NCBI GenBank assembly: GCA_963808625.1
Contig: CAWEHK010000038.1
Location: 1 to 64,000, forward strand
Direction of reading: 5' to 3'
Length of the DNA stretch: 64,000 bases
From: an uncultured delta proteobacterium
GTDB taxonomy: Bacteria > Desulfobacterota > Syntrophobacteria > Syntrophobacterales > Syntrophobacteraceae
In this document: one piece after another, positions 11,103-63,105 of the stretch
Numbering within the stretch: the stretch's first letter is position 1
Layout of the letters: each line of letters opens with the position of its first letter
Notes under the pieces: generated by a model
What the model was told of the DNA's origin: nothing
Database searches by the model: none
What the model saw: the letters and a program-made list of their open reading frames with translations, nothing else
Translations under genes and position numbers: made by a program

Positions 11103-12144
11103 TCACTGCGAAAAGCGATCGAACAAAGCTACTCTCGCCCTCTCGATCGCTCTGAGCACTTTAACCACCTGCACTTTAATGCCTAATTCGGCAAGGATGG
11201 GTGCGAGTGTTTCCTGAACTTCTTTCTTGGAGACCTGGACTTGTTGTGGCAGCGAATCACTCTTTTCAAGAAGTTTGCAAAAAGAGTCCCGGAACCCTGA
11301 GATGGGTGCAGCATGGGTAAGAAGCGAGGTGCCGAGCACATAACCTGAATTGTGTTCGGCAAAGAGCGCGATATGGGGGAAGAAGGGTCTGCCTTTTCCT
11401 TCTCGCACGGGCATTGGCGCAAAAGAGAGATCGGCTTCCCAGATTCTGCCGGGCTGAGGACTTTTCGTCTGGAGTCGCTGCAGGAGCAGTTTGTCTATCG
11501 GGATCGCTCCTTCTTCCTTCGGGACCTTCTTTTGGAGAGGGGCCGGTTTCATGTACGCCGTTGCCCAGGCCAGCCGGTCACCCTCAGTGCGTGGGACGCG
11601 GACCGGAAGCTGCCCTTTCTGGGTTGGTGTGAGGATGCGCTCGTCATCCTTCACCAGCAGGGCAACTTCCGATTGCCTGTTGGAGGGCGGTCCTGAGGAA
11701 TTGTGCTTCGCCTTTACCGAGATACCAGGGATAATAGCCCGGCACGTGGCTCCTGAAGGTCGGCCAGGCATTGCGCCCGCGAAATTTCAGGCCAAGCTGC
11801 TTGATCACCTTCAAATCCTGCGGGTCAAGCATCTGCCTGTCCTCAAAAGAGGCTACCAGACAGTCTTGGGTGAAGAGCGTATCGGCTCTTGCAACTTTCC
11901 CCGATTGAATGGCGCGATAGCCCTCCAGACCCTCCTCGCCCAAATAAACGCCGAGGCCAAAGAACTCACCGAGGTTGCCCATAACGCAGCAGTACCCAAT
12001 TTCTTCATTTGCCGGATTTTGCACGCCGAAAACCTGATCATCAACCATCCAGGTCCAGGCTTCTATTTTCTTGAACTCGACCGCGGCGGCGTACAGCTCT
12101 CTCCATTCCTGCAAAGTCGGCGTCGATTCGTCTATCATTCGCAT
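11103..12144 (-). CDS. Conserved hypothetical protein (one frameshift near 11680)
   Basis: Two protein-like ORF halves (WRELYAAAVEFKKIEAWTWM...GYCCVMG; WEADLSFAPMPVRE..RPFFPHIAL); GGAGG upstream. Confidence 0.7.
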
Positions 12145-12351
12145 CTACTTCCTCCTGCCTCTTCTTCCTTGCGGTTCCTGTTGAAGGTGCTCATACATCT
12201 CTTGACCAAGTCAGCTTCAGACCATAATGAGAGCAAGAAACGATTTCTTCGTGTGTCTTTGCAGTCCTTCGTGTGCCTTCGTGGACACGTTGGGGTCGAA
12301 GGGTTTCCGGTTGCTCTTGGTCGGTCCCTGATTGTCCGGAAACGGTTGTCG

Positions 12352-12957
12352 CTACAATTTCGGATCGGCTCCCTCGGTTGGCAGCCTGCTCGCTTCCTCC
12401 AACCAGAGGTTGCTGAGCTCAATCTCGATATCCTGAAACGGTTCGGCCCGGACCTTGTCATCTTCAGCATACAAGCCGGCCACCACCCAGGTGCCCGATT
12501 CGAGCCGGAAAACTTCCAGGGTCCTGGCTGCAGGATCAATAAGCCAGAAATATCCTACTCCGTGTTTCCCATAGAGGGGCATCTTCCTGATCTTATCCAC
12601 ACGGATGGTGCTGGGTGAGAGCACCTCACAGACCCAATCCGGAGGAACAGCAATCCAATTGGTCTCTTCATCCGTGGGAAATCGTTCCTTTCTCCATCCT
12701 GCCAGATCAGGAACCATAATATTTTGTCCGAGCTTGATTTCCGGCTCATAAAGAATGATCCATCCACCGGGTCCGCCACCGCGTCCGAACTGGTATGGCG
12801 GCATTACCTCAGCCCCCAGCACTGAGCCCGCATACACATGTTTCCTGGATGGTCGCGGGGTGACGATCAACTCCCCGTCAATGATTTCTCCGGTCATGTT
12901 CTCAGGAACACTGTACAGGTCGTCGTATGTCGCCTGCTTTCTTGCCAGCTCCGCCAT
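12352..12957 (-). CDS. Uma2/DUF820-family endonuclease
   Basis: GEIIDGELIVTPRP, PDLAGWR, PDWVCEVLSPST, YFWLIDP. Confidence 0.9.
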   Translation of the reverse strand: MAELARKQATYDDLYSVPENMTGEIIDGELIVTPRPSRKHVYAGSVLGAEVMPPYQFGRGGGPGGWIILYEPEIKLGQNIMVPDLAGWRKERFPTDEETNWIAVPPDWVCEVLSPSTIRVDKIRKMPLYGKHGVGYFWLIDPAARTLEVFRLESGTWVVAGLYAEDDKVRAEPFQDIEIELSNLWLEEASRLPTEGADPKL

Positions 12958-13655: not shown

Positions 13656-16600
13656 ATGGCCAAAGGGCGGCAAGCGAAACCCCAGGACAAAGAACCTGAG
13701 ACTTCCGTTATTGAACAGAGCGTCCGGATCATCACCGTGTTTGTCTCCTCCCCATCCGATACTTCGGCCGAGCGCGCGGTGTTGGAAGAAGTCTGCAAGT
13801 CAATCAACGACACCGACGGGCAGACCGGCGGGTTCCGCTTGGAGCTGTTCCGCTGGGAGCATGACGTGGCGCCAAAGGTCGGCCCCGGGCCGCAACCCGT
13901 TGTCGACGAGCAGACTCCGATCTACAACATCTACCTGGGGATCATGGCTACCCGCTTCGGGACGCCGACGGGTCGTTACGGCAGCGGCACGGAGAAGGAG
14001 TTTCGAGACGCCCTGGAGAGTTGGAAAGAGGCCGGCTCGCCGTGGATCATGTTCTATTTTGACGCCTCTCCAAAACTGACCGGCGATCCAGAACAGGCGA
14101 AACAGTTCGTGCGGGTCTGTAGATTTCGAGCTGAATTGGAGAAGCAGGGGATCTTGGCAACCTACTCGGAAGTGCGCGGCAGTGCCGCCGGATTCTTCGA
14201 GCAAGTCTCGATCCACCTGCGACAGATTGCGCAGCGCCTGCTACAGCAACAGGAACCCGAGCCGGGCCGCAAGCGCAAGAAAACGTGGCGATCAAAACCC
14301 ATCATTCCGCCTGCATACATCTCCTGGCTCCTCGGCTAGTGCGGTGAAGTGGACCTTATGGGGCTGCAGGTCAAACATGGGGCGGGTGTGCGGTTGAACC
14401 AGGTGTACACGCCGCTGGTCACCGCGATGCGACCTGACTGGCAGGGTGCTCCTCGCCGGAAGCGCGAGGAGAGAGCCTTGGTGGAAGGTCGCGAACCCGG
14501 CCGGTTGCTGCTGGATCTGCTGGCTGAGCAGTCGCTGTATGTTTCCGGCGATCCGGGTTCGGGGAAATCCACCTTTTGCCGGTGGGTGACCTGGCTCACG
14601 TGCAACGGCGCCATGCCATCCGTGGATGTGCCGCCGCCGGAACAATACCAGGAGAAATTTCCCGACCCTTTGCGCGGGCGGCTGCCGGTGCTGGTGCGGC
14701 TGCGGGACTTCTGGCCGCATCTCCCGGCTTCCGGTGCGCCGTCAATAGGTCTTGCGGGCCTGGAGCGCGCCCTGGAAAGATGGCTGTCCGAGGAAAAGCC
14801 TCCCGGCCTGGAATGGGTCAACCTGAAGGCTCACCTGGAAAACGGCTCGGCGATGCTGATGCTGGACGGCGTCGATGAAGTCCCGACCGAGCGCAGGGCG
14901 GGTGACGGCGATTGGTATCCGCGCGAAATGCTGCTCGAGGTGCTGGCCGAGGCGATCAAGCGGTGGACCAAAGCGGCAACCGGGTGCTGGTGACCAGCCG
15001 TCCCTACGGCGTGGACGCGAGCCGGCAACAGCGGCTCGGCCTCCTCCATGCTCCCATCCAGGGATTGGACCCGGAGCTGCAGAAGCTCCTGGTGCGCCGC
15101 TGGTTTGTGCGCCTCGACGAAAGCCCGGAGCGCGGCCTGGAAAAAGCCGACGCCATGATCGCTCACCTCCATCGGCGAACGCGCTCTGGATGAACTTGCC
15201 GCCAACCCGCTCCTGCTGACGGCGATGTGCATCATCTACGAGGAAGGCAAACGCCTGCCGGAGGACAAGTACGAGCTCTACAACCGCATCGTGGATACCG
15301 TCCTCCATAAACGCTACCCGGCGGTGAAGGAATCCGTGAGCCAGGTCCGCGGGCGCCTGGCCGCAATTGCCCTGGGCATGCATACCGGTGAAGGTCTGGG
15401 GCAGCAGCGCACCAACCCGGAAGCATCCGCCTCCGATCACGAAATCGACCTGCTGCTTGCAGAAGTACCGCCAGATCGATGGGTCAACGGATGAGGGGCT
15501 CCGGGATACGGTCCATGCGCGGGAGGACCTGCTCTCGAGGTCGGGCCTGCTGGTGCCGCGGGGTGACGGGCGGGCGTCGTTCTATCATCTGTCGTTTCAG
15601 GAGTTCATGGCGGCCGAACGCCTGGTCCTCGAACTTTCGAGAGCCACGGTTGTTCCAGCAGGAGTGTGAGGGCGACGGCTTTCCCAGTCTCCTCCTGGAG
15701 CGGGGGCAGGTTTCAGGCTGGCGGAACACCCTATCGTTTCTGTTCGGCTGCCTCGTGACCAAGTTCAGTCCGGATGTGGGGGCTGGACTCCTCCAGGCCG
15801 TCGTCAACCGCATGGAGATTCCCGAAGTGGACGTTTCCCAACGGGGGCAGACGGGTGGTTTCTGGAACCTGGCAATCGTCCTCGGCGACTGCCTGGAAAT
15901 TCTCGTCGGACGCAAATCAGCGGTGCCGCCGGAATTGCGCGAGTTTTTCCAGGATGTGGTGATGCGCGCCATCGAGCAGGAAATCGCGGTTAAAGATCGG
16001 CATACGCTGGCGGTGGCGTTGGGGCGCTTGGGGGATCCCCGCATTGTCAAGGATTTGCGGGTGCACGGCCATCCCGATGAGCACCCGGGTTACGTGAAGA
16101 TTCCGGCGGGAGATTACTATTACGGTGATGACAAGGAGCGGATTCACATCGATGAGCCGTTCTGGCTGTCGCGCTATCCGGTGACCAATTCGCAGTATGC
16201 GGTGTTCATGGACGAAAAGGGCTATGAAAGGCGCGAATTCTGGTCCGAAGGCGGGTGGCGTTGGCGCGAAAAAGAAAGAGTTCTGGAGCCGAGGTTTTGG
16301 CGTCATCCTGCCTTCAATGCTTCCAACCAGCCGGTGGTCGGGGTCTCGTGGTGGGAAGCGGAGGCTTTTACCAAATGGACCGGGGGAAAACTGCCCACCG
16401 AACGGCAATGGGAGGCGGCGGCGCGGGGTCCGCAGGGCTATGTTTATCCTTGGGGCGATGAGTGGGAGGATGGACTATGCAACAGCATGGAGGCTGGGCT
16501 GGGGGGCACTTCGGCAGTGGGCATATTCCCTCGGGATCGGTCGATGCCGTTCGGGGTGGAAGATATGGCGGGGAATGTGTGGGAGTGGTGTGCAGATGAG

Positions 16601-16856
16601 GTGGCCACGGTCCGGGTGATCCGGGGCGGCAGCTGGGGCTGCTCCGCCAGGGGCTGCCGGGCGGCGGACCGGACGCGGGAACGGGCCGTCCGACCGGGAC
16701 TACGATCTCGGCTTTCGTGTGGCCCCAGTTCCGTCTGGCGGGCAGGCAGGTTCCAGCAAGCCAGAGCGAACGGAGCCTGGAGTGGAGGCCGAGGGGGCGG
16801 AAGTGCGGAGCCCGCCCCCTCGCGCCGGAACGGAAGGCGGAGTGAGCGACAGGTAG
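13656..16856 (+). CDS. DGR target 1: DUF4062 - NACHT/STAND NTPase - FGE-sulfatase-like CLec domain (in-frame TAG at 14337 and indels)
   Basis: VFVSSPSD..AER, YLGIMATRFGTPT..SGTEKEF (DUF4062); GDPGSGKST Walker A and LMLDGVDEV Walker B; NPLLLTAMC; FYHLSFQEF; YPVTNSQY, LPTERQWEAAARG, DMAGNVWEWC, RVIRGGSW. Confidence 0.9.
16603..16734 (+). repeat. DGR variable repeat VR1
   Basis: Aligns to TR 18668-18798. By hand count about 12 substitutions fall at TR adenines (e.g. AAC>GGC, AAC>TGC, AGG>GGG, AAT>GAT), plus a 1-nt insertion near 16673. Confidence 0.95.
16790..16822 (+). promoter_or_regulatory. GC-rich hairpin downstream of VR1/IMH
   Basis: cgagggggcgg-aagtgcggagc-ccgccccctcg, 11-bp stem; same stem follows VR2. 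Confidence 0.75.
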
Positions 16857-16926
16857 AGGTGGAGATTGGTGGAGCAATGGCATAGTGTTTAGAGCCGAAG
16901 TTTGCACTCGTATGTCGGGCTGTTTT

Positions 16927-17016
16927 GGTGGGCACAAAAAGACTTGCCCACCCTACGATTTTGCGGAACCTTGGGCTGAGTGCAGTAGGGTGGGCACAGC
17001 TTCATCGTTCCCACCA
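16927..17016. repeat. GTAG-type REP pair (GTAGGGTGGGCAC family)
   Basis: ggtgggcacaaaaagacttgcccaccctac ... gtagggtgggcacagc...cccacc; same family near 26607-26692, 29629-29660 and 62740-62790. Confidence 0.75.
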
Positions 17017-17186
17017 AAGCTGGGTGATTATCTCCAGTACAATGAACCAGGGGGCCTCAGATCGTCATTCCCGCATGCTCCTGGCGGGAATCCAGGGCTT
17101 CGAGAAAGGTCGATGCCCCCACGGTTTGTGAGAAGTTGCGGTGTGGTCTTTTAACATATTGATATCATAAATAAATAAGCGATATC

Positions 17187-17678
17187 GTGGCCTTCAAATT
17201 CTTCATAATTCCAGTCCAGGGGTGGGAACATGCCGAGGACGAGCTGAACGCGTTCCTGCGCAACCACAAGGTCCTGGCCGTGGACCGGCGGTGGGTGGAC
17301 CAGGGGGCTAATTCGTTCTGGTCGTTCTGCGTGGATTACCTGGAGCGGGGTGCCGCTGGCGGGCCAGGCTCCCGTCAGCAGAAGGAACGCGAGAAGGTTG
17401 ATTACCGGGAGGTCCTGAGCCCCGAAGACTTCGCGATCTTCGCCAGGCTGCGCGAACTGCGGAAAGAAATCGCCCAGGCGGAAGCGGTTCCGGTTTACAC
17501 TATCTTTACCAACGAACAGTTGGCGCAAATGGTGCAATCGAAAGTGGCTACGAAAGCTGCCCTCGAGGGCATGGCCGGCGTTGGGGACGCGCGGATCGAG
17601 AAATACGGAGCCCGCATTCTGGCATTTTTGCAGCAGGAGTGGAAAGAAACGGGTGAAGCGGGCGGGAAATCTGTTTGA
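17187..17678 (+). CDS. HRDC-domain protein, DGR accessory factor
   Basis: FARLRELRKEIAQAEAVPVYTIFTNEQLAQMV...MAGVGDARIEKYG is an HRDC signature; overlaps the RT start. Confidence 0.88.
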   Translation: MAFKFFIIPVQGWEHAEDELNAFLRNHKVLAVDRRWVDQGANSFWSFCVDYLERGAAGGPGSRQQKEREKVDYREVLSPEDFAIFARLRELRKEIAQAEAVPVYTIFTNEQLAQMVQSKVATKAALEGMAGVGDARIEKYGARILAFLQQEWKETGEAGGKSV

Positions 17679-18668
17679 GCGAGTCATCGCTCGCGACAAC
17701 CTGCGCCTGGCCGTCGCCAGGGCGTTGCGTGGCAAACGGGACCGCGTGGAAGCCCGCCGCTTTGTCGCCCGCCTCGATGATCACCTCGAAAGCATGGCCC
17801 GGGAGCTTTCGGAAGGCCTGTTTCCGGTCGGAAGGTTTTCCCAGTTCGTCATTCACGATCCCAAAGAACGCATCATCACGGCGCCTTGCTTCGCCGAACG
17901 GGTCCTGCACCATGCCGTCATGAACGTCTGCGAGCCCAAGTTTGAACAGTGGCTCATCGATGACACCTACGCCTGCCGCGTCGGCCGCGGCCAAAGCGCG
18001 GCGCTTGTCCCGAGCACAAGAATTTGCACGGCGTTTTCCCTTCTTCCTGAAGATCGACGTCCGCAAGTACTTCGACAGCATCTCCCACGAGACCCTGCTG
18101 TCCCGGCTGCGGTTGCTCTTCAAAGATCGTCGGCTGCTGGACCTCTTCGAGCGGATCGTCCACAGTTTTCGCGGGAACCTTGGGCGGGGACTCCCCATTG
18201 GCAGCCTGACCTCGCAGCACCTGGCCAATTTCTACCTGGGCTGGTTCGACCGCTATGCCAAGGAGACCCTGCGCCTCAAGGGCTACGTCCGCTATATGGA
18301 TGATATGGCGCTTTGGGCCGATTCGGCTGCCACCCTCAAGACCGCCCTCGCCCTTGCCCGCGAACATCTTTGGGCGCAGCTCAGGCTGGAGCTCAAGGAT
18401 TATCCTTACATCAATCGCACGGAACACGGCATGAACTTTCTGGGATGCCGCGTTTTCTCGGACCGAATCACCCTGAATCGAGCGAGTCGCGTGCGCTTCA
18501 GGCGCAAGCTGGCGCCGGCTCGAGCAAGCGTTCCTGAGAGGTGAGATCGATGAGACCGAACTTCAGCGGCGAACGACCTCGCTTGTGGCTTTCACGCGAT
18601 CCGGCGGCGTAAAATCTTGGCATTTCCGGCGCGCAGTGCTACAAAAACTCCCGGTGAGCGACCTTTAG
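17653..18668 (+). CDS. DGR reverse transcriptase (two apparent frameshifts)
   Basis: GTG start MKRAGNLFE; DPKERIITAPCFAERVLHHAV; LKIDVRKYFDSISH; GLPIGSLTSQHLANFYL; YVRYMDD; NFLG; C-terminus ...LQKLPVSDL-TAG at 18666-18668. Confidence 0.95.
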
Positions 18669-18798
18669 GCCACGGACCGGGTGATCCGGGGCGGCAGCTG
18701 GAACAACTCCGCCAGGAACTGCCGTGCGGCGAACCGGAACAGGCACGAGCCGTCCTACCGGAGCGACAATCTCGGCTTCCGCGTGGCCCCAGCTCCGT
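18668..18798 (+). ncRNA. DGR template repeat (TR)
   Basis: AAC-rich copy of the VRs (tgg aac aac tcc gcc agg aac tgc cgt gcg gcg aac cgg aac agg...), outside any target gene and immediately 3' of RT. Confidence 0.93.
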
Positions 18799-18991
18799 GC
18801 ACAAGGTGGATTCGATTTCCATGTCAGCGCGGGTTCGAATGGTAAAGTCAAGCTCCGCGCGCAGGGTGGATGCCCAGCCGGACGGAACCGGCCGCTTTCC
18901 TGCCCCGCTTGGGCGGGCGAAATTAATGTCTGAGCCGTCCCCGTGCTGGTAGCGACCGTGAGCAGCGAGCCGCGAACGCTCGGGGCGGCCT
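18799..18991 (+). ncRNA. Putative structured 3' part of DGR RNA (spacer)
   Basis: Stem-forming segments gccccgc-ttgg-gcgggc and gccgtccccg...cggggcggc followed by ttt; position typical of the priming spacer. Confidence 0.5.
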
Positions 18992-19069
18992 TTCAATTCC
19001 AATGGTGAGATTAAGCAAACCTGTCAGGTTGAAATGTAGCAAACTCATCAGTTCCTGAAGGCAGCAGAG

Positions 19070-19919
19070 ATGAAGACACAACTCCTGAAGGAATGGCTCA
19101 AGGCCAAACATGTGGGGCAGGCTTTCCAGCCTGCCATTCACTGGCCGGAGTTCAGGTCCTTTACTAAGGAAGATCTGGGTGCGGTTGGTTTGTACCAAAG
19201 GAGGTTGCCTCACTGGGAATTGCAGGGTTCCACTTACTTTATCACTTTCAGAGTCCATGAGGGCCTGGGGAGGCCTTTGATCGGCAGCCTGAAAGATCCA
19301 GCCGACCTCCCTCAATTTCCTGCTCAGTCCAGCAAGCTGGAGAGCCAGACTATTACCCCTCAATATGATGATCAGGTTGGCAGGCTGGAAAGCCTGCTCC
19401 ACATAAGCCCGGAGTCCACAGTGTGGGGCAGGCTTTCCAGCCTGCCATCGGCCCAACTATCTTCTGAGGAACTATCCTGCTAACCAGCCATCCCATAACC
19501 AGCCATCCCATAACGAGCCATCTCATATCCAGACATCCTCCATACCGGCAACCATAGTTGAGGAAGCCTTATGGTTTGGCTACAAGAAAGGTATCTTCTG
19601 GATGCTTATGTCATCATGCCCGGACCACGTTCATCTGCTGCTCAGACCCTTGACCAATTGGAGACTTGCCAAAATCCTCAAGGGAATCAAAGGATTCACG
19701 GCAAGGGAGATCAACAGGGTCCTTGGTCGAAAGGGTCCCTTTTGGCAGGAGGAAAGTTTTGACCATTTGGTAAGGAATGATGGGGATTGGCTGGACAAGT
19801 TCGACTATATCCACAAGAATCCAGTGACTGCTGGACTGGTGGAGAGGCCGGAGGATTATCCTTTCAGCAGCTTGTGGCCATGCACAGCAAAGGCAGGCTG
19901 GAGAGTTTACAGCAGATAG
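19070..19919 (+). mobile_element. REP-associated tyrosine transposase (RAYT, Y1 HUH), disrupted
   Basis: RRLPHWELQGSTYFITFR; AYVIMP-DHVHLL (HUH); KGFTAREIN; FWQEESFDHLVR; YIHKNPV.AGLV..PEDYPFSS. Confidence 0.88.
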
Positions 19920-20019
19920 GAAAAGCAGGCTGGAAAGGCTGCTCTACATAAGGGAGTAGCTTTATCGCAGTGCAGGCCAAGATTGTTTACGGCATTGTGT
20001 CTGGAAAGCCTGCCCCACA
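19111..20019. repeat. REP family TGTGGGGCAGGCTTTCCAGCCTGCC, copies in and after the RAYT
   Basis: Copies at ~19111, 19379-19403 (inverted), 19422-19446, 19925-19948 and 20001-20019. Confidence 0.85.
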
Positions 20020-20059
20020 TTCGGGAGTAGCTTTTCGGAAGGGTATTAGGAGGGACCGC

Positions 20060-23000
20060 ATGGTAAAGCCGCCGAAACAGTTCGAGTCATCCGCATCTTT
20101 GTGTCCTCACCGGGGGATGTGGCGGAAGAGCGCGAGGTGCTGGACGAAGTGGTCGCGCGCATCAACCGGACCGATGGTCAAGCCGGGGGTTCGGCTTGAG
20201 GTGTGGAAATGGGAGACACACGTTGTTCCCCAAATCGGCCCGAAACCCCAGGGGGTGGTCGACAACCAGACGCCTGCTCACTATGACATCTACCTGGGCA
20301 TCATGAAGCACCGCTTCGGCACGCCGACGGAGCGATATGGCTCGGGCACCGAGAAGGAGTTCAATGACGCGCTGGAGCGCTGGGGAAAGGAGGGCTCTCC
20401 CTGGGTGCTTTTCTATTTCACTAAGGAAAAGGTGAACCATCATGAGCTGGATGACGGCCAGTACGAACAGTACTGCGGAAGGTTCGCATCAATTCCGCAA
20501 GAAGATTGGAGGAAATGGGGCTTCATGCGGCTTACGAGGGAGTCCGGGGATCGAACGAGGGGTTCTTTGAAAAGGTCGAGGAACATCTGCGGAAGCATCC
20601 TGCAATTGCTGGCGCCTCTTGGGCCCCAGGACGAAGACAAGCCTGTCGCCGATCCCACGGCCTACCTGCGCGATCTCCTCACGAAGACGGAATACATCGA
20701 CATCCGCGGCCTGCAGGTCGGGCAGGAGCGGGCTCATCGATTTCCCATTGAAGAGCTGTACATTTCGCTCACCACGACGCAGGCAGCGAGCCTGACGGCG
20801 ACCAGCCGATGAAAGGCGGGCGCAAAAGGGCGGACCATGGCCCGGAAATGGAACGTGCCCTTCCGCGAAACCCAGGCTTTGCCGCTGCACGAGGCGCTGC
20901 GCCATGAGCGGCTGGTCATAGTTGGCGATCCGGGTGCCGGGAAGACCACCTTCCTGCGCCGGGTTGCGCATGCCCTCTGCCAGACCGAGTTGGGCGACGC
21001 GCCCGATGCGGCCCTGGCCCGTGTCGGGATCAGCGAACGGACGTTTCCCATCCTGGTGCGGCTGAACGAATTGGATGAGCATATCTCGCGCCACCGAAAT
21101 GATCCGGCGGCTCCGACGGGGGAGGTCGCCGGCCTGGCTGCCGCATTACCTGGCGAAGACCAGCCTGGACAACAGACTGGGGGCTCGATGATGCCTTTTT
21201 CCGCCAGCAGCTGGAAGACGGCGGTTGCACCGTGCTGCTGGATGGCCTGGACGAGGCGGCGGATCGTGTTGCCCGCCAGCGACTCTCGCGGTTGATCGAG
21301 AACGTCGGCCCGGACCTATCGCGGTTGCCGCATGGTCGTGACCAGCCGGCCTGCGGGTTATACGGGGGAGGCGATCCTGCCCGATGTCGGGCATGGTCGG
21401 AGGAGCCTCGCCGGCTGGCGAGTTCGCCCGGTTTTCGCCCACGCTCGCATCGACCCGCTGTCCGACCAGGCGGTGGAGACCTTCCTTTCCCGTTGGTGCG
21501 AGGCGCTTTACGGTGAGAGCCCCGAGGCAGCGAAGCGACCACTGCTCGGAGTTGCTTTCGGCACTGAAGGCGCGGCCGGACATCCGCCGCATGGCGCGCA
21601 ATCCGGTGATGTTGACGGCCCTTGCGGTGGTGCACTGGAATGAACGCCGGCTGCCGGAGCAACGGGCCGATCTTTACGAATCGATCATCCGCTGGCTGTC
21701 GCGCTCCCGCGAGCAAAAGCCGGGACGCGAGAAGGCGGAGCGCGCCGTGGTTCTGCTGCAGGAACTGGCGCTGGCCATGCAGGACCATCCCGAAGGCATG
21801 CGCACGGAGGTCTCCAAACGCTGGGCGGCGGAAGCGATTGCCGGCGAATGGACGTCCGGAAAAGTTGACAAAGATGCCATCGCCGTTGCCGAAGCGTTCC
21901 TGGAAGCCGAGGAGCTGGACAGCGGCATTATCGTGGGCCGAGGAGAGAATGTGCGCTTCTGGCACCGAACTTTTCAGGAATTCCTGGCGGCCCGCGCCAT
22001 TGCGGCGCGCCCCGAAGCCGAAGCAGCAGGAGCTGCTGTGGAAATTGCGGCAAGACGCCTGCCCAGGCTCTACCTGCCGGAATGGCGGGAGGTCATCCTG
22101 CTGCTGGCCGGGATTCTTCACCAGCGGGGGCGGGCGACGGTTGATTATCTGGTGAAGACGATGATCAGATCGCGCAGGAGGTGAATGCTACACTGGCTGA
22201 ACAGGCGCGCTGTGCGGGTTTGATCGGCGCCATGCTGAGTGACCTGGCGCCGGTGGGGTATAGCCTCAGGACCACCAATACGAGGAGTTGCTGCATCGGG
22301 TCATGGGCATCTTCGACCGGGAGCGGTCGCAGAGCGTGCCCATCGAAACCCGCATCGAGGCGGCCGACGCTTTGGGGCAGGCGGGCGATACGCGGCTGGA
22401 TTTTCGGCCATCGTGACTACTGGGTGACGATTCCTGCGGGCGAGTTCTGGATGGGGGCGCAGGCCAGTGATCCGAAAGGTCGAAACTACGACTCTGAAGC
22501 ATACGAGGACGAAGCTCCGGTGCACAGGGTGCATTTGGATACCTATCGCATCGCCCGTTATCCGATTACGGTGGGGCAGTATCGGAAGTTTCTTGAGGAT
22601 GATGGATACAAAGAGGAGGATTGGTGGCAGGCGGGTGGATTCGGGAAGTTCTCCGAGCCAGAGAAGTGGGAAGATCAGTTGCAGTATCCCTCGCGCCCGG
22701 TGGTTTCGGTGAGTTGGTATGAAGCGGCGGCGTTTTGCCGGTGGGCCGGTTGCCGGTTGCTCACGGAAGCGGAATGGGAGCGGGCGGCGCGGGGGAGCGA
22801 CGGACGGAGATATCCCTGGGGAAATGAGGATGCTGACCCATCTCGCCTTAATTACAGCGATAGCGACATCGGTCATCCGACGCCGGTCGGCATTTATCCG
22901 CTCGGAAGCACGCCGGAAGGCATTTGCGATCTTGCCGGGAACATCTGGGAATGGTGTGCAGATTGGTATGGGGGTTATCCTGCTGAACGAGTAGCTAACC

Positions 23001-23219
23001 CATCTGGGACCTCAAAAGGCCTCGTACCGGGTGATCCGGGGCGGCAGCTGGTACGATGTCGCCAGGTACTGCCGGGCGGCGGTCCGGCACAGGGACGTGC
23101 CGTCCTACCGGGGCAACTATCTCGGCTTTCGCGTGGCCCCAGTTCCGTCTGGCGGGCAGGCAGGTTCAGGCAGGCCAGAGCGAACGGAGCCTGGAGTGCA
23201 GGCCGAGGGGGCGGAATAG
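20060..23219 (+). CDS. DGR target 2: DUF4062 - NACHT/STAND NTPase - FGE-sulfatase-like CLec domain (frameshifted)
   Basis: YDIYLGIMKHRFGTPTERYGSGTEKEF; GDPGAGKTT; LLDGLDE; NPVMLTALA; FWHRTFQEF; LLTEAEWERAARG; DLAGNIWEWC; RGGSWYDVARYCRAAVRHRDVPSYRGNYLGFRVA. Confidence 0.9.
23018..23148 (+). repeat. DGR variable repeat VR2
   Basis: Gap-free 131-bp alignment to TR; about 10 substitutions at TR adenines (AAC>TAC twice, AAC>GTC, AAC>CAC, GAG>GTG, AAT>TAT). Confidence 0.95.
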
Positions 23220-23236
23220 CGGAGCCCGCCCCCTCG
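23204..23236 (+). promoter_or_regulatory. GC-rich hairpin downstream of VR2/IMH
   Basis: cgagggggcgg-aatagcggagc-ccgccccctcg; the target-2 stop codon lies in the loop. Confidence 0.75.
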
Positions 23237-23448
23237 CGCCGGAACGGAAGGCGGAGTGAGCGGTAGGGAGTTGTCCAAAGATAAGACGCCTGCTTTTACC
23301 ACGAAGAGCACGAAGACCACGAAGGACAGGAAGTGATTTCTTCGTGGTCTTCGTGTCCTTCGTGGTTTGAAACAGGGTCGAAATAAGAGCACGTTATTTT
23401 TGGACAAGCCCTAATACTACAACGATATTTTAGGAAAGGTTCAAACTG

Positions 23449-23516
23449 TGTGGGGCAGGCTTTCCAGCCTGCCATGCCGAACTGGCTAAAAGGCAGGCTG
23501 GAAAGCCTGCCCCACA
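23449..23516. repeat. REP doublet (REPIN) of the RAYT-associated family
   Basis: tgtggggcaggctttccagcctgcc ... ggcaggctggaaagcctgccccaca. Confidence 0.85.
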
Positions 23517-23561
23517 CGGCTTGGAGCTTCAACAAAGTACCATTGGAGTACAAAGCAGCTG

Positions 23562-29855: not shown

Positions 29856-30139
29856 TTGATGGTTGATGGTGGATAGTTGATGGTTGATAGTTGATGGTTG
29901 ATAGTTGATGGTTGATGGGGATGTTGATCGGTGACTGGTTATGAGCTCCAAGCCATGAATGGAGGGGATTAACAGTCTTTCCTTTCGGGAATGGTATATA
30001 TTGCCCTGGGGTTCGACTCCAAAAGGCCGAGACCAAGCATCGAAAACCAACAGCCACGAACCATGAACCATGAGCCATTTTGTCCATCAACCATCAACCA
30101 TCAACCATCAACCATCAACTATCAACCATCAACCATCAA
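29856..30139. repeat. Inverted heptamer arrays (TTGATGG)n ... (CCATCAA)n
   Basis: Array at 29856-29918 and its reverse complement at 30083-30139, in the divergent mutS/uvrA intergenic region. Confidence 0.85.
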
Positions 30140-30162
30140 CATCTCTAAAAGGAGCCAATCGT

Positions 30163-36513
<6,351 letters not shown>

Positions 36514-36732
36514 TTTGAGGGTTTCGACACAGCCCATTAAAACGCTTTCCAGGTTCAACAGAAATCCAATGCTTGGCATCACAGCGGTTTGCACGCATAA
36601 CGGAAATCAGGCAGCCAGAGACGACCGGGACGGGCAGGGAGCGTGATCTATGTGGGTTTTGGGAGGTGAATTGTTGTGACGAATAAGTGATCGTGATCCA
36701 GTGATGGAAACGAATCTGGCATTAAACGGCGT

Positions 36733-37168
36733 CTAAAGAGAAAGGACGAACCTGTTTGTGTAACCTTCGTAAATTAAGATTCCATTGGCCAGCAGGTCCC
36801 TGCCAATCAAGCAATCTATATTCTAAACCTGCCAGTGGAGCTTCCATTGCGTTGACCAAGCCATTGACATACTGATGCTGCGGAAATATCACCGACACAT
36901 CGTAAACATTGCAGGAATGCCTGGCGCATGACGGTGTTGAGATTTCGGTGATGCCCCTGGGCTGCAGATTAAGTTCCTGCGCGATCCCCGTTTTGAGAAC
37001 CGTCCCACTGGCGCCTGTATCGATAAGGGCTGCGCACTGACGAACAGGAGGAAGATCCTTTCCTTACGATTGTAGAGCGTCAAGAACCGGCTTGGATGCA
37101 GTAATGAGGACATTGCTGATCGGACCGCTGTTCCTCAAATCGGGGAGATTTGTGCTGAGGCAAGGCAA
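36733..37168 (-). pseudogene. Retropepsin-like aspartyl protease (internal TAA at 37064-37066, one frameshift)
   Basis: Not in the ORF track. Manual translation gives CAALIDTGASGTVLKTGIAQELNL and later CLIGRDLL, the D[TS]GA and LxGRD motifs. Confidence 0.75.
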
Positions 37169-37204
37169 CCCACATCTACTCCATGAAGAAAGAAGTTCCC
37201 CTTT

Positions 37205-37414
37205 TCAAAGTGGCTGATTCCTTATAACCAGAAAAGGAACGTCTCCAAATTTCCTAATTCCCTGGCGCAGGGCGTCTTCGTAAGCCAAACAAATGTCAAA
37301 AACCTCATCATCCTTAATCACCACAAATTCCTCAGCATTTCCTTGCGCGATCAAAGGGTCCTTAATCTTCTTATATTTTGACATTTGAATTCCGAGTCGA
37401 TGGTGACTCCACAC
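37205..37414 (-). CDS. Small hypothetical protein upstream of the aspartyl protease (possibly decayed)
   Basis: EFVVIKDDEVFDICLAYEDALRQGIRKFGDVPFLV resembles small partners often found with such proteases. Confidence 0.5.
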   Translation of the reverse strand: MWSHHRLGIQMSKYKKIKDPLIAQGNAEEFVVIKDDEVFDICLAYEDALRQGIRKFGDVPFLVIRNQPL

Positions 37415-37700
37415 AGGACCAGTTTGCTTTTAAACCGGGGCAAAAACCCTCTTTCAAGCCCTCCACGAACAACAACCCTTCCATCGAGCTCACTTTGAGT
37501 CGATCTGCGCATCATCCCCACCTCGACGGTGTCACACCGTGGTGGTGGCTGCTTCAATTACCAAGGAATCGGCACACAAATGGGCAGAAAATGAGCCAAG
37601 ATGCACCTTGACAGGATCGAAGACACATGCTATCCGAAATGCGCCAGAAAGCAATTTCCTGTCATCTCTTCAATCTATCATTGGGTGCAAGGGGGCCATC

Positions 37701-39647
37701 ATGAAATCCATGTTTCATTTTCAAAAACCCAATAAGAAAAGTCCCTCATGGAAGAGAGGCTTGGCGCTGGTGTCTGGGACCATGCTGGCGTTAACTCTAG
37801 TGAGCGCTCTGTCCACTATGGCTCACAATTCCGCATGGGCGAACTCATCAAATGACTGTACGATTTACCGCGAGGTCTTCCCTATTCTCAACACCGGAGG
37901 GACCACCCCCAAGGACATCGTCTTCATCCAGAAATGGTACGGGGAGCAACATGGCAGCGCCATTGTCGACGCCGCCAGTCAGGATCTCCAGCGATTGGAT
38001 AACGGGCTGGCGCCGGAAATGCAGCCGGTCGATTCGAACCCCGTCGGGAATCTGGTCCCGAACACGGGCGGCGCCTTCTACTCGCCAAGCGCGGTTGCGG
38101 GCATCTACATTTTTACGGATGAGTTCAGTGCGGACGTCTCGACGCTGCGCAGGGTGCGTTTCGACTCCCGCAACAACGGTTGTTCGACCTTCGTGCAGCA
38201 GAACTCAACAAGCTGCCAGAAGGTCTATTACGACTCACCGACCAACTCGCAGCTCAACTTTGACCCCGCGGCGCAATCCGCCATGCATGTCGCGTTGCGG
38301 ATCGGCACCACGTGGTACATCGCCGAGCAGGTCCTGGAGCAGTCCGCTTACAACCCTGCCACCACCCCTGGAGGCGACCCAAAGGACCCGATCTGGCAAA
38401 CCCATACCTTTGATTTCGCAGGAAAGACGTTCTTGATCGCCAACAGCTACGACGAGGCCCCTGGCGGTGAGTGCGAGAGCACGGTCCCCAACTGCCTGCC
38501 ACGCGAGAACGGACCGTCCGGACAGACTCTCCCGTTGAGCGGCACAGTCAACGGCATCGGCATCTGGATCGAGAAGAACCAACCGGCACCGAGGCTCCCG
38601 AGCGGAACCTCCGCGACGCTGCGCATTGACAATTTCGAGGTCCGCTCTGACGTTTGTGACGACGGCAATCCTTGCACCGCCGACAGCTGCAACCCAACGA
38701 CGGGTGAATGTGTGTACACACCGGTCAACGTGGATGACAACAACGCCTGCACCACGGACGCCTGCGATCCGGCGACCGGTAATATCAGCCACACCCCCAT
38801 CAACTGCGACGACAACAACGCGTGTACCGCCGACAGCTGCAACCCAACGACGGGTGAATGTGTGTACACACCGGTCAACGTGGATGACAACAACGCCTGC
38901 ACCACGGACGCCTGCGATCCGGCGACCGGCATCAGCCACACCCCCGTCAACTGCGACGACAACAACGCGTGTACCAACGACAGTTGCGATCCAGCGACGG
39001 GCTGCACGCACACACCGGTCAACGTGGATGACAACAACGTCTGCACCACGGACGCCTGCGATCCGGCGACCGGCATCAGCCACACCCCCGTCACTTGCGA
39101 CGACAAAAACGCGTGTACAACGGACAGTTGTGATGCGGTGTTGGGATGCGTGTACACCCCGATCTCCTGCACCGACGGAAACGCCTGTACGAACGACACG
39201 TGCGATCCTGCGTCGGGCTGCGTGTACACGCCGGTGTCCTTGATCTGCGACATCACGGCACCCGAAAAGGTGGACTTCGGCTCCACGGGGAACGTGGCAT
39301 CCACGACACCCGGGTATGCCCAATACCAGTGGGTGATCTACGTGGATGATTTGAGCAACCCGGATCCGTCTCTCATCACGGCGGGACAGAACACCCAGCA
39401 GATCACCTTCAGCGCGCCGGCATCGTTCACGGTCCTCAAGATCGGCGTAGTGGCGACAACAGACCAGGGATGTCAGTGTATCAATGATCCGGGCGTCTCA
39501 GGCGACCCGAAAGAAGGGCATGACGTGTACCCCAATCAGGCTATTCCTGTGCCGACCCTTTCCGAGCGAGGTGTGATCCTTTTCCTGCTGCTCCTGGGAG
39601 TGACGGCAATTGTGACACTGCGTCGGAGAGGTCATGTTGAACGCTAA
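37701..39647 (+). CDS. Secreted Cys-rich repeat protein with IPTL-CTERM-like sorting signal
   Basis: Signal peptide; eight ~24-aa (C/V)DDNNACTxDxCDPxxGxxxTP repeats; C-terminal IPVPTLSERGVILFLLLLGVTAIVTLRRR. Confidence 0.85.
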   Translation: MKSMFHFQKPNKKSPSWKRGLALVSGTMLALTLVSALSTMAHNSAWANSSNDCTIYREVFPILNTGGTTPKDIVFIQKWYGEQHGSAIVDAASQDLQRLDNGLAPEMQPVDSNPVGNLVPNTGGAFYSPSAVAGIYIFTDEFSADVSTLRRVRFDSRNNGCSTFVQQNSTSCQKVYYDSPTNSQLNFDPAAQSAMHVALRIGTTWYIAEQVLEQSAYNPATTPGGDPKDPIWQTHTFDFAGKTFLIANSYDEAPGGECESTVPNCLPRENGPSGQTLPLSGTVNGIGIWIEKNQPAPRLPSGTSATLRIDNFEVRSDVCDDGNPCTADSCNPTTGECVYTPVNVDDNNACTTDACDPATGNISHTPINCDDNNACTADSCNPTTGECVYTPVNVDDNNACTTDACDPATGISHTPVNCDDNNACTNDSCDPATGCTHTPVNVDDNNVCTTDACDPATGISHTPVTCDDKNACTTDSCDAVLGCVYTPISCTDGNACTNDTCDPASGCVYTPVSLICDITAPEKVDFGSTGNVASTTPGYAQYQWVIYVDDLSNPDPSLITAGQNTQQITFSAPASFTVLKIGVVATTDQGCQCINDPGVSGDPKEGHDVYPNQAIPVPTLSERGVILFLLLLGVTAIVTLRRRGHVER

Positions 39648-39891
39648 ACTTTGATCGCCTTGACAGGCCATTTCAAGAGGCAGAGTCTAAAAGACTCTGC
39701 CTCTTTTGCTTTTTCAGCTTGCCCGGCCTTGTATCCATCCGGCCGGGACCTTATCGCCCCCAACCTGAAAAAGCAGCTCCAACTCCCGGAATGAGGAAGG
39801 ATTCCCGTTTTTTCCTGAACGCCTTTCTCACCTCCATTTCGGGACGAAGCCGGCAGATCTCGATTAAGCCCCAAGAACCCATCGGGTTGTT

Positions 39892-40194
39892 TCAGGATTC
39901 ACGGCGCCGTGTGGCATGAGGCTCAAGGGTCAGATCGAGTGCGCGGCAGCAGCGGCCGGTGTCCGAAATCTGAATTTCCACGTGGCCCTCTTCCATCCTG
40001 CTGATAATGCCAAGACGTTTCTCGGTCATCCCCTGCATGGCGTGACTCTGTTGCAACTGCTCCACAACGTCGCCGATCAGGTCGTTAACGTTGGCGGGCT
40101 CTCGATAGGGTCTCCCCGAGGTTTTCAGTTCGATCGGGTTTTTTACCATCTTCTCCAGTCCAGCGATTTCCGTGATGATGATCCGTAGGTACAT
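39892..40194 (-). pseudogene. Decayed histidine kinase ATPase-domain fragment
   Basis: EPANVNDLI...HAMQGM..KRLGI..VEIQISDTG; internally deleted. Confidence 0.5.
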
Positions 40195-40261
40195 CCTGTT
40201 GGGGTCGCCTTCCCCAAGGTTCTCGTTGGCATCTAACTCATCGGTGTCACAAGAAGGAATT

Positions 40262-41908
<1,647 letters not shown>

Positions 41909-62729: not shown

Positions 62730-63105
62730 CTGTCCAAAAGGGTAGGCTGTGCCCACGCATGGAGCAGCATGTGGGCAGAGCCCACCCTTGGTACAAAATG
62801 GCAAACTTGTTTTTGGACGGTCACTTAGAGACTATCTCAAAACTGGCTTACCCCGTCACCCCGGCGGAAGCCGGGGTCCGGGAATTCCCAAGAAAAACTG
62901 GATTCCGGCTTTCGCCGGAATGACGATCAACGGCGCTTTGATCATTTTGAGATAGTATCCTTAGTACTACAACGTTACTTTGGTGACGGTCCAAGCGATG
63001 TGGGGCAGGCTTTCCAGCCTGCCAGGCCAAATTGGCCAAAAGGCAGGCTGGAAAGCCTGCCCCACAAATTGAGGCCCCAGGTGGAAACCTCGTTGTAGTA
63101 TTAGG
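62730..63105. repeat. Three adjacent nested repeat units, including a REPIN at 63000-63066
   Basis: ctgtccaaaa..ttttggacgg around a GTGGGCA pair; actatctcaaaa..ttttgagatagt around gtcaccccggcggaagccgg..ccggctttcgccggaatgac; tactacaacg..cgttgtagta around the RAYT-family REP doublet. Confidence 0.8.

Follow-up and report, generated by a model that had tools for sequence, protein, structure and literature searches.

A chromosomal HRDC-type diversity-generating retroelement with five probable targets and an altered template repeat in an uncultured delta proteobacterium

A diversity-generating retroelement and its five variable repeats

Within the first 64,000 nucleotides of contig C38 of an uncultured delta proteobacterium genome (GenBank assembly GCA_963808625.1, contig CAWEHK010000038.1; hereafter the window), we found a diversity-generating retroelement (DGR) that is arranged on the forward strand in the order target 1–HRDC–reverse transcriptase (RT)–template repeat (TR)–target 2. 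The best overall explanation, and one which we hold to be highly probable, is a chromosomal DGR of the HRDC type without Avd that diversifies five paralogous genes and whose TR was overwritten later. The genome (G000; 4.8 Mb, 54 contigs, 85% complete; C37, C12, C33, C43 and similar labels refer to its other contigs) was compared with a genome from another genus of the same family (G097), with two genomes of the host's genus (G002 and G007) and with fetched loci (L-numbers). A sequence-only reading of the window had described a complete two-target DGR at this place, and the parts it named were recovered on the forward strand at the coordinates it gave, including the RT motifs LPIGSLTSQ and YMDD.

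The TR (18668-18798, forward strand) is a non-coding, AAC-rich sequence of 131 nt that begins at the RT stop. It aligns, as had been proposed, with two variable repeats (VRs) on the same strand, VR1 at 16603-16734 and VR2 at 23018-23148. VR1, which has an additional base near 16674, differed from it at 14/24 TR adenines and 8/107 other bases, and VR2 at 10/24 adenines and 9/107 other bases. Earlier hand counts of about 12 and 10 adenine changes were thus close, while the 8 and 9 non-adenine differences had been left out. Mismatches were clearly enriched at adenines (Fisher p 1e-7 for VR1 and 2e-4 for VR2), and 23/24 TR adenines fall on codon positions 1-2, where the changes had been placed before. 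Such adenine differences between TR and VR are what Wu et al. (PMC5758913) describe as characteristic of DGRs.

The number of targets had been underestimated. BLAST of the TR against its own genome returned three further full-length VRs on contigs C37, C12 and C33, changed at 17/24, 13/24 and 19/24 TR adenines and at 6/105, 16/107 and 22/107 other bases, respectively. Adenine enrichment was therefore present in 5/5 VRs (p 2e-4 or less), with non-adenine differences above the usual level. Position 18793 is C in the TR and T in 5/5 VRs, a difference at the TR/VR boundary (initiation of mutagenic homing, IMH/IMH*), and the same C/T exchange was the commonest non-adenine difference among related TR-VR pairs. 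Each of the five VRs has a GC-rich hairpin behind it (z -1.8 to -2.7), which the TR lacks (z +0.5). After VR1 and VR2 it consists of 11-bp inverted repeats at 16790-16822 and 23204-23236 (forward strand), hairpin or cruciform candidates from DNA folding; the corresponding hairpin after the VR is required in phage BPP-1 (PMC3240598).

Indels were seen in VR1, the C37 VR and the C33 VR, and both VRs of the G097 cassette (L184, G097:C8 near 8,714 and 13,790) are frameshifted, the rest of both targets and the RT there being open despite these indels. These indels could stem from slippage at AAC runs or from a mixed population collapsed into one consensus.

Reverse transcriptase and HRDC gene

The RT gene (17653-18668, forward strand; about 339 aa) has breaks near 18010 and 18515 and perhaps a third at 18666, and was read through with X at two breaks to give 339 aa. 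Its start is overlapped by an intact HRDC accessory gene (17187-17678, forward strand; PF00570, 65 bits), which showed zero frame breaks against G097. No Avd gene was found in the cassette, whereas the second DGR of the genome has one. A quick maximum-likelihood tree of 68 RT rows (66 distinct; SH-aLRT supports only, no retron RT among them) placed the RT among RTs mostly from Planctomycetota that are linked to HRDC and to TR/VR pairs. A branch with SH-aLRT 99 parted it, together with the Avd-linked RT of the genome, from 20 RTs of host relatives, and 6/6 of the latter that were tested pass the group II intron cut-off. The phylogeny and the TR/VR alignment had both been suggested as checks by the sequence-only reading, and both agreed with a DGR.

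That the RT could instead belong to a group II intron or a retron, the repeats being ordinary homology between paralogues, is extremely improbable: although its best NCBIfam match by name is a group II model, this match lies far below the cut-off, as do the retron models, the intact orthologous RT reaches 96.5 with the group II model (TIGR04416; cut-off 300) and 50 with retron St85 (cut-off 235), and a non-coding AAC-rich copy shows the adenine bias. A group II intron identity was refuted by the tree position together with the sub-cut-off profile score. The best PDB match was 8ub7 (E 1.5e-16), which we take to be the BPP-1 RT, and group II RTs followed at 1e-6.

Gene order in relatives supported the same assignment. 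Among 125 loci fetched with the RT (80/86 metagenome matches kept, near-duplicates included in the counts) and having room for the feature in question, an HRDC gene lay upstream of the RT in 98/99, a TR-like motif downstream in 91/113 and a VR-like motif upstream in 60/69. Adenine bias, gene order and RT tree together bear out the earlier proposal that one RT and one TR serve both flanking paralogues. A Pirellulaceae cassette (L045) carries homologues of the same two targets with their order swapped around HRDC-RT-TR.

A conserved RNA tail and an insertion next to the template

Downstream of the TR we found a conserved structured RNA tail (the spacer of the DGR RNA) at 18851-18992 on the forward strand, with a candidate primer strand at 18883-18886. 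A covariance model made from 29 relatives, with the window left out, scored 106 bits in the window at 18847-19006. Across the 29 relatives 92% of cells pair, and 21/28 pairs show compensatory change. Covariation exceeded all 500 shuffles and all slid controls, the structure being derived from the tested alignment itself and relatedness inflating the shuffle test. The first helix is formed by UCCG, at the end of the TR, and CGGA within the tail. As four pairs between TR end and spacer form the template:primer duplex in BPP-1 (10.1101/2023.10.23.563531), we predict by analogy that A18886 would prime and that the boundary base C18793 would be copied first.

A 60-nt insertion sits at the TR 3' end (18798-18857, forward strand), flanked by direct repeats (7 bp exact, 21 nt imperfect) and starting with a diverged copy of the first 21 nt of the tail. 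It was missing in 19/19 aligned relatives and in G097, so that the window alone has it, and the offset of the RNA model was 160 here vs 100-101 in 13/13 relatives. Constrained folding preferred the TR-adjacent helix by 1.1-2.6 kcal/mol in 3/3 windows; the insertion may therefore simply loop out and be tolerated, and the idea that it displaces priming and thereby froze the VRs was no longer kept as the leading account.

A source for the insertion was not found in its own genome (matches of at most 14 nt), in the 125 related loci (at most 13 nt) or in 80 family genomes; two short patterns from it had no exact match in viral contigs, and plasmid matches were at chance level only. A match to Gordonia phage Keelan (82% over 52 nt, E 2e-5) had no protein-level support and is probably due to chance. 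Off-target integration of the CRISPR type was rejected as well, as the genome has cas1 but an array period of 70-72 nt, not 60.

A template that has probably changed since the last fixed homing

Six positions of the TR (18675, 18709, 18744, 18756, 18763 and 18765, forward strand) are candidates for former adenines, all being A in the G097 TR. At the equivalents of the last four, A is found in 86, 83, 84 and 74 of 88 related TRs (the in-register cases out of 97), while our TR has C, T, G and G. Ten sites in total are A in the G097 TR and non-A here; at the six named, the five VRs show the variability of genuine TR adenines, with A still present in at least one VR at each of them. The VRs differed from the TR at 51% of positions where only G097 has A, compared to 63% at TR adenines and 7% elsewhere. 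Once the six sites and 18708 are disregarded, only 3-4 differences from the TR remain in each of VR1, VR2 and the C37 VR, all of them at silent third positions or the boundary base. Four of the six lie in a 22-nt patch, at codon positions 1-2 of former AAC codons.

No VR carries all four new 3' TR bases, and none has C at 18744. The TR change should thus be younger than the last fixed homing, and we infer that the template was overwritten after this event in any VR. The invariance expected of a DGR template was therefore not found here, judged from one consensus assembly. Only 2 and 0 of 92 non-adenine positions differed in the second DGR of the genome. With the change, peptide coding capacity would have dropped from about 4e17 (G097 TR) to 3e13. 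A literature search, with most subscription papers outside its reach, found no report of natural TR self-overwriting.

Several observations weigh against the explanation as a whole or call for caution with this history. The 8 and 9 non-adenine differences of VR1 and VR2 are high, given that related pairs have a median of 1 and that 54/63 of them have at most 2 (ungapped pairs with more than 25 differences were dropped). The C12 and C33 VRs keep 9 and 16 such differences after the candidate sites are set aside, and these two VRs may be old or no longer targeted. An unbiased erosion test gave a modest result (4/24 conserved adenines vs 1/54 conserved non-adenines, p 0.03), with the non-adenine sites being under coding constraint. 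At least four conserved adenines were also lost in 6/69 distinct related TRs, so the change is not unique to this element; two of these six are TR::VR chimeras and two have VRs that match the changed TR. All TR changes were read from one consensus assembly.

Self-homing of mutagenised cDNA, conversion of TR by a VR and a swap with a sister element would each fit the change. We tentatively regard self-homing as the single most likely cause, at somewhat less than an even chance. Gene conversion, in which the patch would stem from a lost VR allele by homologous recombination and not from cDNA, is less likely and yet a serious alternative. It predicts the same A-to-N pattern, two of the four 3' changes are also present in VR2, relatives include TR::VR chimeras (L053 and L150), and RT-independent TR-VR recombination is described as rare but real (PMC12875486, 10.1101/2025.03.24.644984). 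Arguing for a different origin are the lack of any present VR with all four bases or with C at 18744, and the TR's own boundary base and downstream tail, which the chimeras do not retain. In the chimeras (L053 and L150, also L105 and L148) the 3' half of the TR and its flank are VR-like.

Rather unlikely is a swap of the TR, together with the first part of the insertion, from a sister DGR, or a service of the VRs by a TR that is missing from this 85%-complete assembly or that belongs to another strain. The genome does hold a third VR family with six VRs for which TR and RT are missing from the assembly, the insertion begins with the diverged copy of the tail, silent third-position differences separate TR from VRs, and a 5' stretch of VR2 is explained by a G097-type TR. 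On the other side, BLAST found no second TR, the RNA tail had one match in the genome (150/2,094 candidates scored), and at non-adenine sites VR1, VR2 and the C37 VR resemble the TR far more than any related TR does (best 103/120). We give little credence to consensus or polishing artefacts as the source of the TR changes or the insertion: the assembly is error-rich, with about one frameshift per kb in housekeeping genes, but the errors seen are single-base indels, from which four substitutions within 22 nt at former AAC codons would not be expected, and the TR of the second DGR is clean.

Targets resembling single-chain NLR-like receptors

Target gene 1 (13656-16856, forward strand) encodes a putative DUF4062/TIR-like domain, a NACHT-type STAND NTPase and an FGE/C-type-lectin domain with VR1 at its end, as assigned by Pfam on pieces. 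Target gene 2 (20060-23219, forward strand) has the same DUF4062–NACHT–FGE/C-type-lectin arrangement with VR2 at its end, and carries 15-18 frame breaks without an in-frame stop. The gene ends given before, 16885 and 23262-23266, move to 16856 and 23219 when the VR frame is followed. All five targets are colinear with intact homologues of 1,000-1,100 aa (50-66% identity for target 1), in which Pfam gives the order DUF4062–NACHT–FGE-sulfatase. The G097 orthologue of target 1 scored above cut-off for NACHT and FGE-sulfatase, and that of target 2 for DUF4062, NACHT and FGE-sulfatase. The FGE domain (PF03781) reached 145 and 173 bits in the two targets, with the VR at the C-terminus; its PDB matches were FGE-fold proteins and, weakly, Treponema TvpA (2y3c, E 4e-4).

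DUF4062 was above cut-off in the target 2 orthologue (29.2) and in the C37 paralogue (36.1). A model of the N-terminal domain from a 7-sequence alignment (mean predicted local distance difference test score 71) matched TIR and nucleoside deoxyribosyltransferase folds (best Z 10.9, range 10-11; root-mean-square deviation 3.5, 138 aligned residues). An SGTExE motif was invariant, with E113 and E115 kept in 7/7 aligned homologues, and E115-F116 is taken as the putative counterpart of the published E-Y motif. The Evangelion preprint describes an acidic motif with a putative catalytic glutamate (10.64898/2026.06.25.731849). In other proteins, DUF4062 is a TIR-like NADase acting in abortive infection according to Osinski et al. 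(10.64898/2026.05.01.722283). The domain also matched the PADLOC candidate system PDC-S60 (E 5e-34) and is patchily distributed, being present in 7/80 family genomes.

The targets are thus probably single-chain NLR-like proteins with a variable lectin-fold sensor, a NACHT switch and a predicted DUF4062 TIR-like NADase effector, and we lean slightly towards a role in abortive-infection defence. Some results weaken this view. DUF4062 on target 1 itself stayed below cut-off (23.1 vs 24.7 bits), the fold match does not discriminate between TIR and other flavodoxin-like folds, whose scores tie within 1 Z, and lectin-fold NACHT/STAND proteins are experimentally untested according to Doré et al. (PMC10907252). 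Signalling or surface proteins that do not execute defence are a weaker, though not far-fetched, alternative: cyanobacterial DGR targets have been proposed to act in signalling (work cited in PMC10907252), and the DUF4062–NACHT–lectin architecture is without any functional test so far. Against it stand the combination of NACHT with DUF4062 and its conserved glutamate motif, the PDC-S60 match and the patchy occurrence. Our literature search, which covered preprints apart from their supplements, did not find DUF4062 in print as the effector of a DGR target.

Related genes were noted elsewhere. A DUF4062–HATPase_c_4 gene lies directly downstream of the remote target on C12 (L002, G000:C12, 2595-4277, minus strand). 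A truncated target 1 paralogue with an in-frame stop is located at G000:C13:8226-7140, an orphan segment of the hairpin that follows VRs at G000:C50:164819-164715, and a more distant homologue of the N-terminal domain at G000:C17:17860-18380.

Frame breaks and signs of decay

In 27 housekeeping genes compared with G006 we counted 24 frameshifts in 23.9 kb, 20 of them of the +1 type and 8 in rpoB alone; two stops in one N-terminal extension were judged to be misalignment. The two breaks in the RT (1.0 expected) and the five in target 1 (3.1 expected) fit this assembly error rate, and the RT is therefore probably intact in the cell. Target 2, with 15 breaks vs 3.2 expected (p 1e-6; 18 with the G097 query), exceeds it and weighs against an intact element.

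A dead fossil, with genuine frame breaks that make RT and targets pseudogenes, seems unlikely to us without being far-fetched. Besides the excess in target 2, it would explain the in-frame TAG at 14337-14339 of target 1, which is CAG in G007 and cuts the N-terminal domain off the rest, the present TR being reflected in none of the VRs, and a deletion that removed about 9 kb of the cassette from the same site in G007. It fits less well with the housekeeping genes, which show the same +1 bias and a rate matched by RT and target 1, with the lack of an in-frame stop in target 2, or with the intact HRDC gene and RNA tail. On account of the stop in target 1, the breaks in target 2 and a TR that was not the last writer of the VRs, the element cannot be called complete, as it had been.

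A broken RAYT gene with REP-like repeats (19070-19919, forward strand; NF047646, 76 bits vs a cut-off of 80), earlier counted as a part of the element, is by sequence comparison a later insertion and a passenger outside the DGR, as the orthologous G097 cassette does not contain it and has target 2 immediately after the TR tail. The small mobile repeats and the nonsense codon suggest that the chromosomal DGR is starting to decay.

Genomic setting and further DGR material

The cassette is chromosomal, as its neighbours are housekeeping genes (kdp, RNase II, amidase, mutS and uvrA), and a prophage setting was rejected for the same flanking genes. Named homologues of the neighbouring RNase II were mostly from Syntrophobacteraceae (54-63% identity). 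In the host's genus, the flanks are joined and the cassette is absent in G002, while in G007 a stub of target 1 is left, which abuts a repeat before RNase II. In G097 the cassette is present in full and in unchanged gene order (69-77% nucleotide identity); its targets of about 1,000 aa and its RT are intact, and it has neither a RAYT nor an insertion after the TR. No tRNA was found in the window, an Rfam scan gave nothing near a gathering score, and a promoter scan returned 3 sites vs 2.6 expected.

Directly upstream of the cassette, on the minus strand at 11103-12957, are genes for DUF6930, DUF7309 and a Uma2-family nuclease. Several families of REP/MITE-like palindromes occur in the window at 16922-17110, 19107-19448, 23298-23551 and 62959-63066; their core motifs have 53 to 172 exact copies genome-wide, and one marks the end of the G007 deletion. 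Several uvrA-like genes at 30070-41908 include a duplication spaced 5.4 kb (91-93% identity), with heptamer tandem repeats between the genes, and at 37539-39647 a 702-aa protein with eight Dictyostelium CTDC-type cysteine repeats (PF00526) is encoded.

The second DGR (L004, G000:C43, ~87,000-100,500) has Avd (NF033474, above cut-off), an unbroken RT of 378 aa and an AAC-rich TR near 94,800. It has two NACHT-FGE targets, one preceded by a metallophosphoesterase domain, with 15 and 16 of 28 adenines changed, and contains a DDE transposase. The third VR-like family (G000:C43:62517, 58019 and 143939; C30:8600; C37:140748; C50:60946) has 29 variable columns, all at codon positions 1-2, and neither TR nor RT in the assembly; two of its members, of the DUF4062-NACHT-FGE type, lie on either side of an HRDC remnant, an arrangement that a deletion of RT and TR would leave. 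The three systems together account for 13 VR-bearing genes in this genome.

Proposed mechanism and implications

A transcript would span the RT 3' end, the TR and the structured tail, and the RT would copy it with errors at adenines. UCCG at the TR end is expected to pair with CGGA in the tail, so that A18886 would prime and C18793 would be the first base copied, in analogy to the Bordetella phage DGR. The cDNA would then overwrite the variable repeat at the 3' end of five paralogues, of which two flank the RT and TR and three lie on other contigs. The variable lectin fold may sense, the NACHT domain switch and the DUF4062 NADase execute abortive infection. Finally, the TR would have been overwritten at six adenines after the last fixed homing into any VR. 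Taken as one claim, a natural DGR that rewrote its own TR by self-homing, fixing six sites while five NADase-armed NLR-like receptors record the older template, is speculative and more probably wrong than right.

The targets described here bear on the question of what cellular DGR targets do: they carry a putative effector domain known elsewhere as an anti-phage NADase. The intact orthologous cassette of G097 makes the idea of a hypermutating antigen sensor testable by an NAD+ read-out; if it holds, DUF4062-NACHT-lectin targets would be directly testable hypermutating bacterial immune receptors. TR invariance is a textbook feature of DGRs, and lost adenines that are recorded in five VRs let the history of a template be read. 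A changed TR is also a simpler account of some non-adenine differences. If the self-homing reading is correct, DGR programmes might erode or be re-set by self-homing, and many 'non-A' differences in surveys might be fossils of template change. The conserved RNA tail further gives a concrete prediction of the priming site for HRDC-type DGRs; the reconstitutions that we found use the Avd-type DGR of BPP-1.

Comparison with known systems

Two-target NACHT–lectin DGRs are already published (Doré 2024, PMC10907252), and this locus extends the published class; for the wider setting we refer to Kaur et al. (PMC7159879) and Roux et al. (PMC8144416). DGRs 3 and 6 of Thiohalocapsa PB-PSB1 (clade 5D of Doré et al.) likewise have two central-NACHT targets with one C-terminal FGE/C-type-lectin (CLec) VR. 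Several DGRs per genome, remote targets or trans-acting templates, degenerate loci and damage by MITEs or transposons are further shared features (PMC10907252). Unlike in clade 5D, the predicted effector here is DUF4062, the accessory gene HRDC and the host Syntrophobacteraceae-like; the likeness concerns target architecture. Neither DUF4062 nor HRDC was found in the supplements of that study apart from file 1, and HRDC occurs 0 times in its main text (PMC10907252). The same study states that the TR remains unaltered, whereas the TR here has lost adenines (PMC10907252).

In the survey of Wu et al. (2018, PMC5758913), Architecture C has an HRDC accessory gene (14/372 DGRs), as found here; unlike in this HRDC-containing architecture, the present cassette has no Avd. 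Two targets (50/372), remote targets in non-phage DGRs, non-adenine differences (in 23%) and indels beside AAC are likewise common to both. Wu et al. ascribe the non-adenine differences to non-canonical mutagenesis, whereas here they would mostly be explained by the TR change (PMC5758913).

With the DUF4062 TIR-like NADase defence proteins Swarozyc and Evangelion (10.64898/2026.05.01.722283, 10.64898/2026.06.25.731849) the targets would share a DUF4062/TIR-like core, a conserved glutamate motif and a variable sensor part, and DUF4062 adjoins NACHT in TEP1/NWD1 as it does here. Unlike in these systems, the sensor is a DGR-diversified FGE/CLec domain behind NACHT; in the text available of the two preprints FGE occurs 0 times, as do DGR in the first and retroelement in the second.

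In engineered DGRec, cDNA overwrites its own TR locus (10.1101/2025.03.24.644984), as proposed here. There the overwriting is driven by added recombineering proteins, whereas the present case would be a natural fixed event, deduced from sequence.

Compared to the DGR of BPP-1, the element shares RT motifs, the 3' boundary difference and a GC hairpin after the VR (PMC3240598, 10.1101/2023.10.23.563531), with a hairpin loop of 11 nt vs 4 in BPP-1, as well as a structured spacer after the TR and a four-pair TR:spacer helix (10.1101/2023.10.23.563531). Unlike BPP-1, it is cellular, has HRDC and not Avd, carries its TR downstream of the RT, and probably serves five large multidomain targets.

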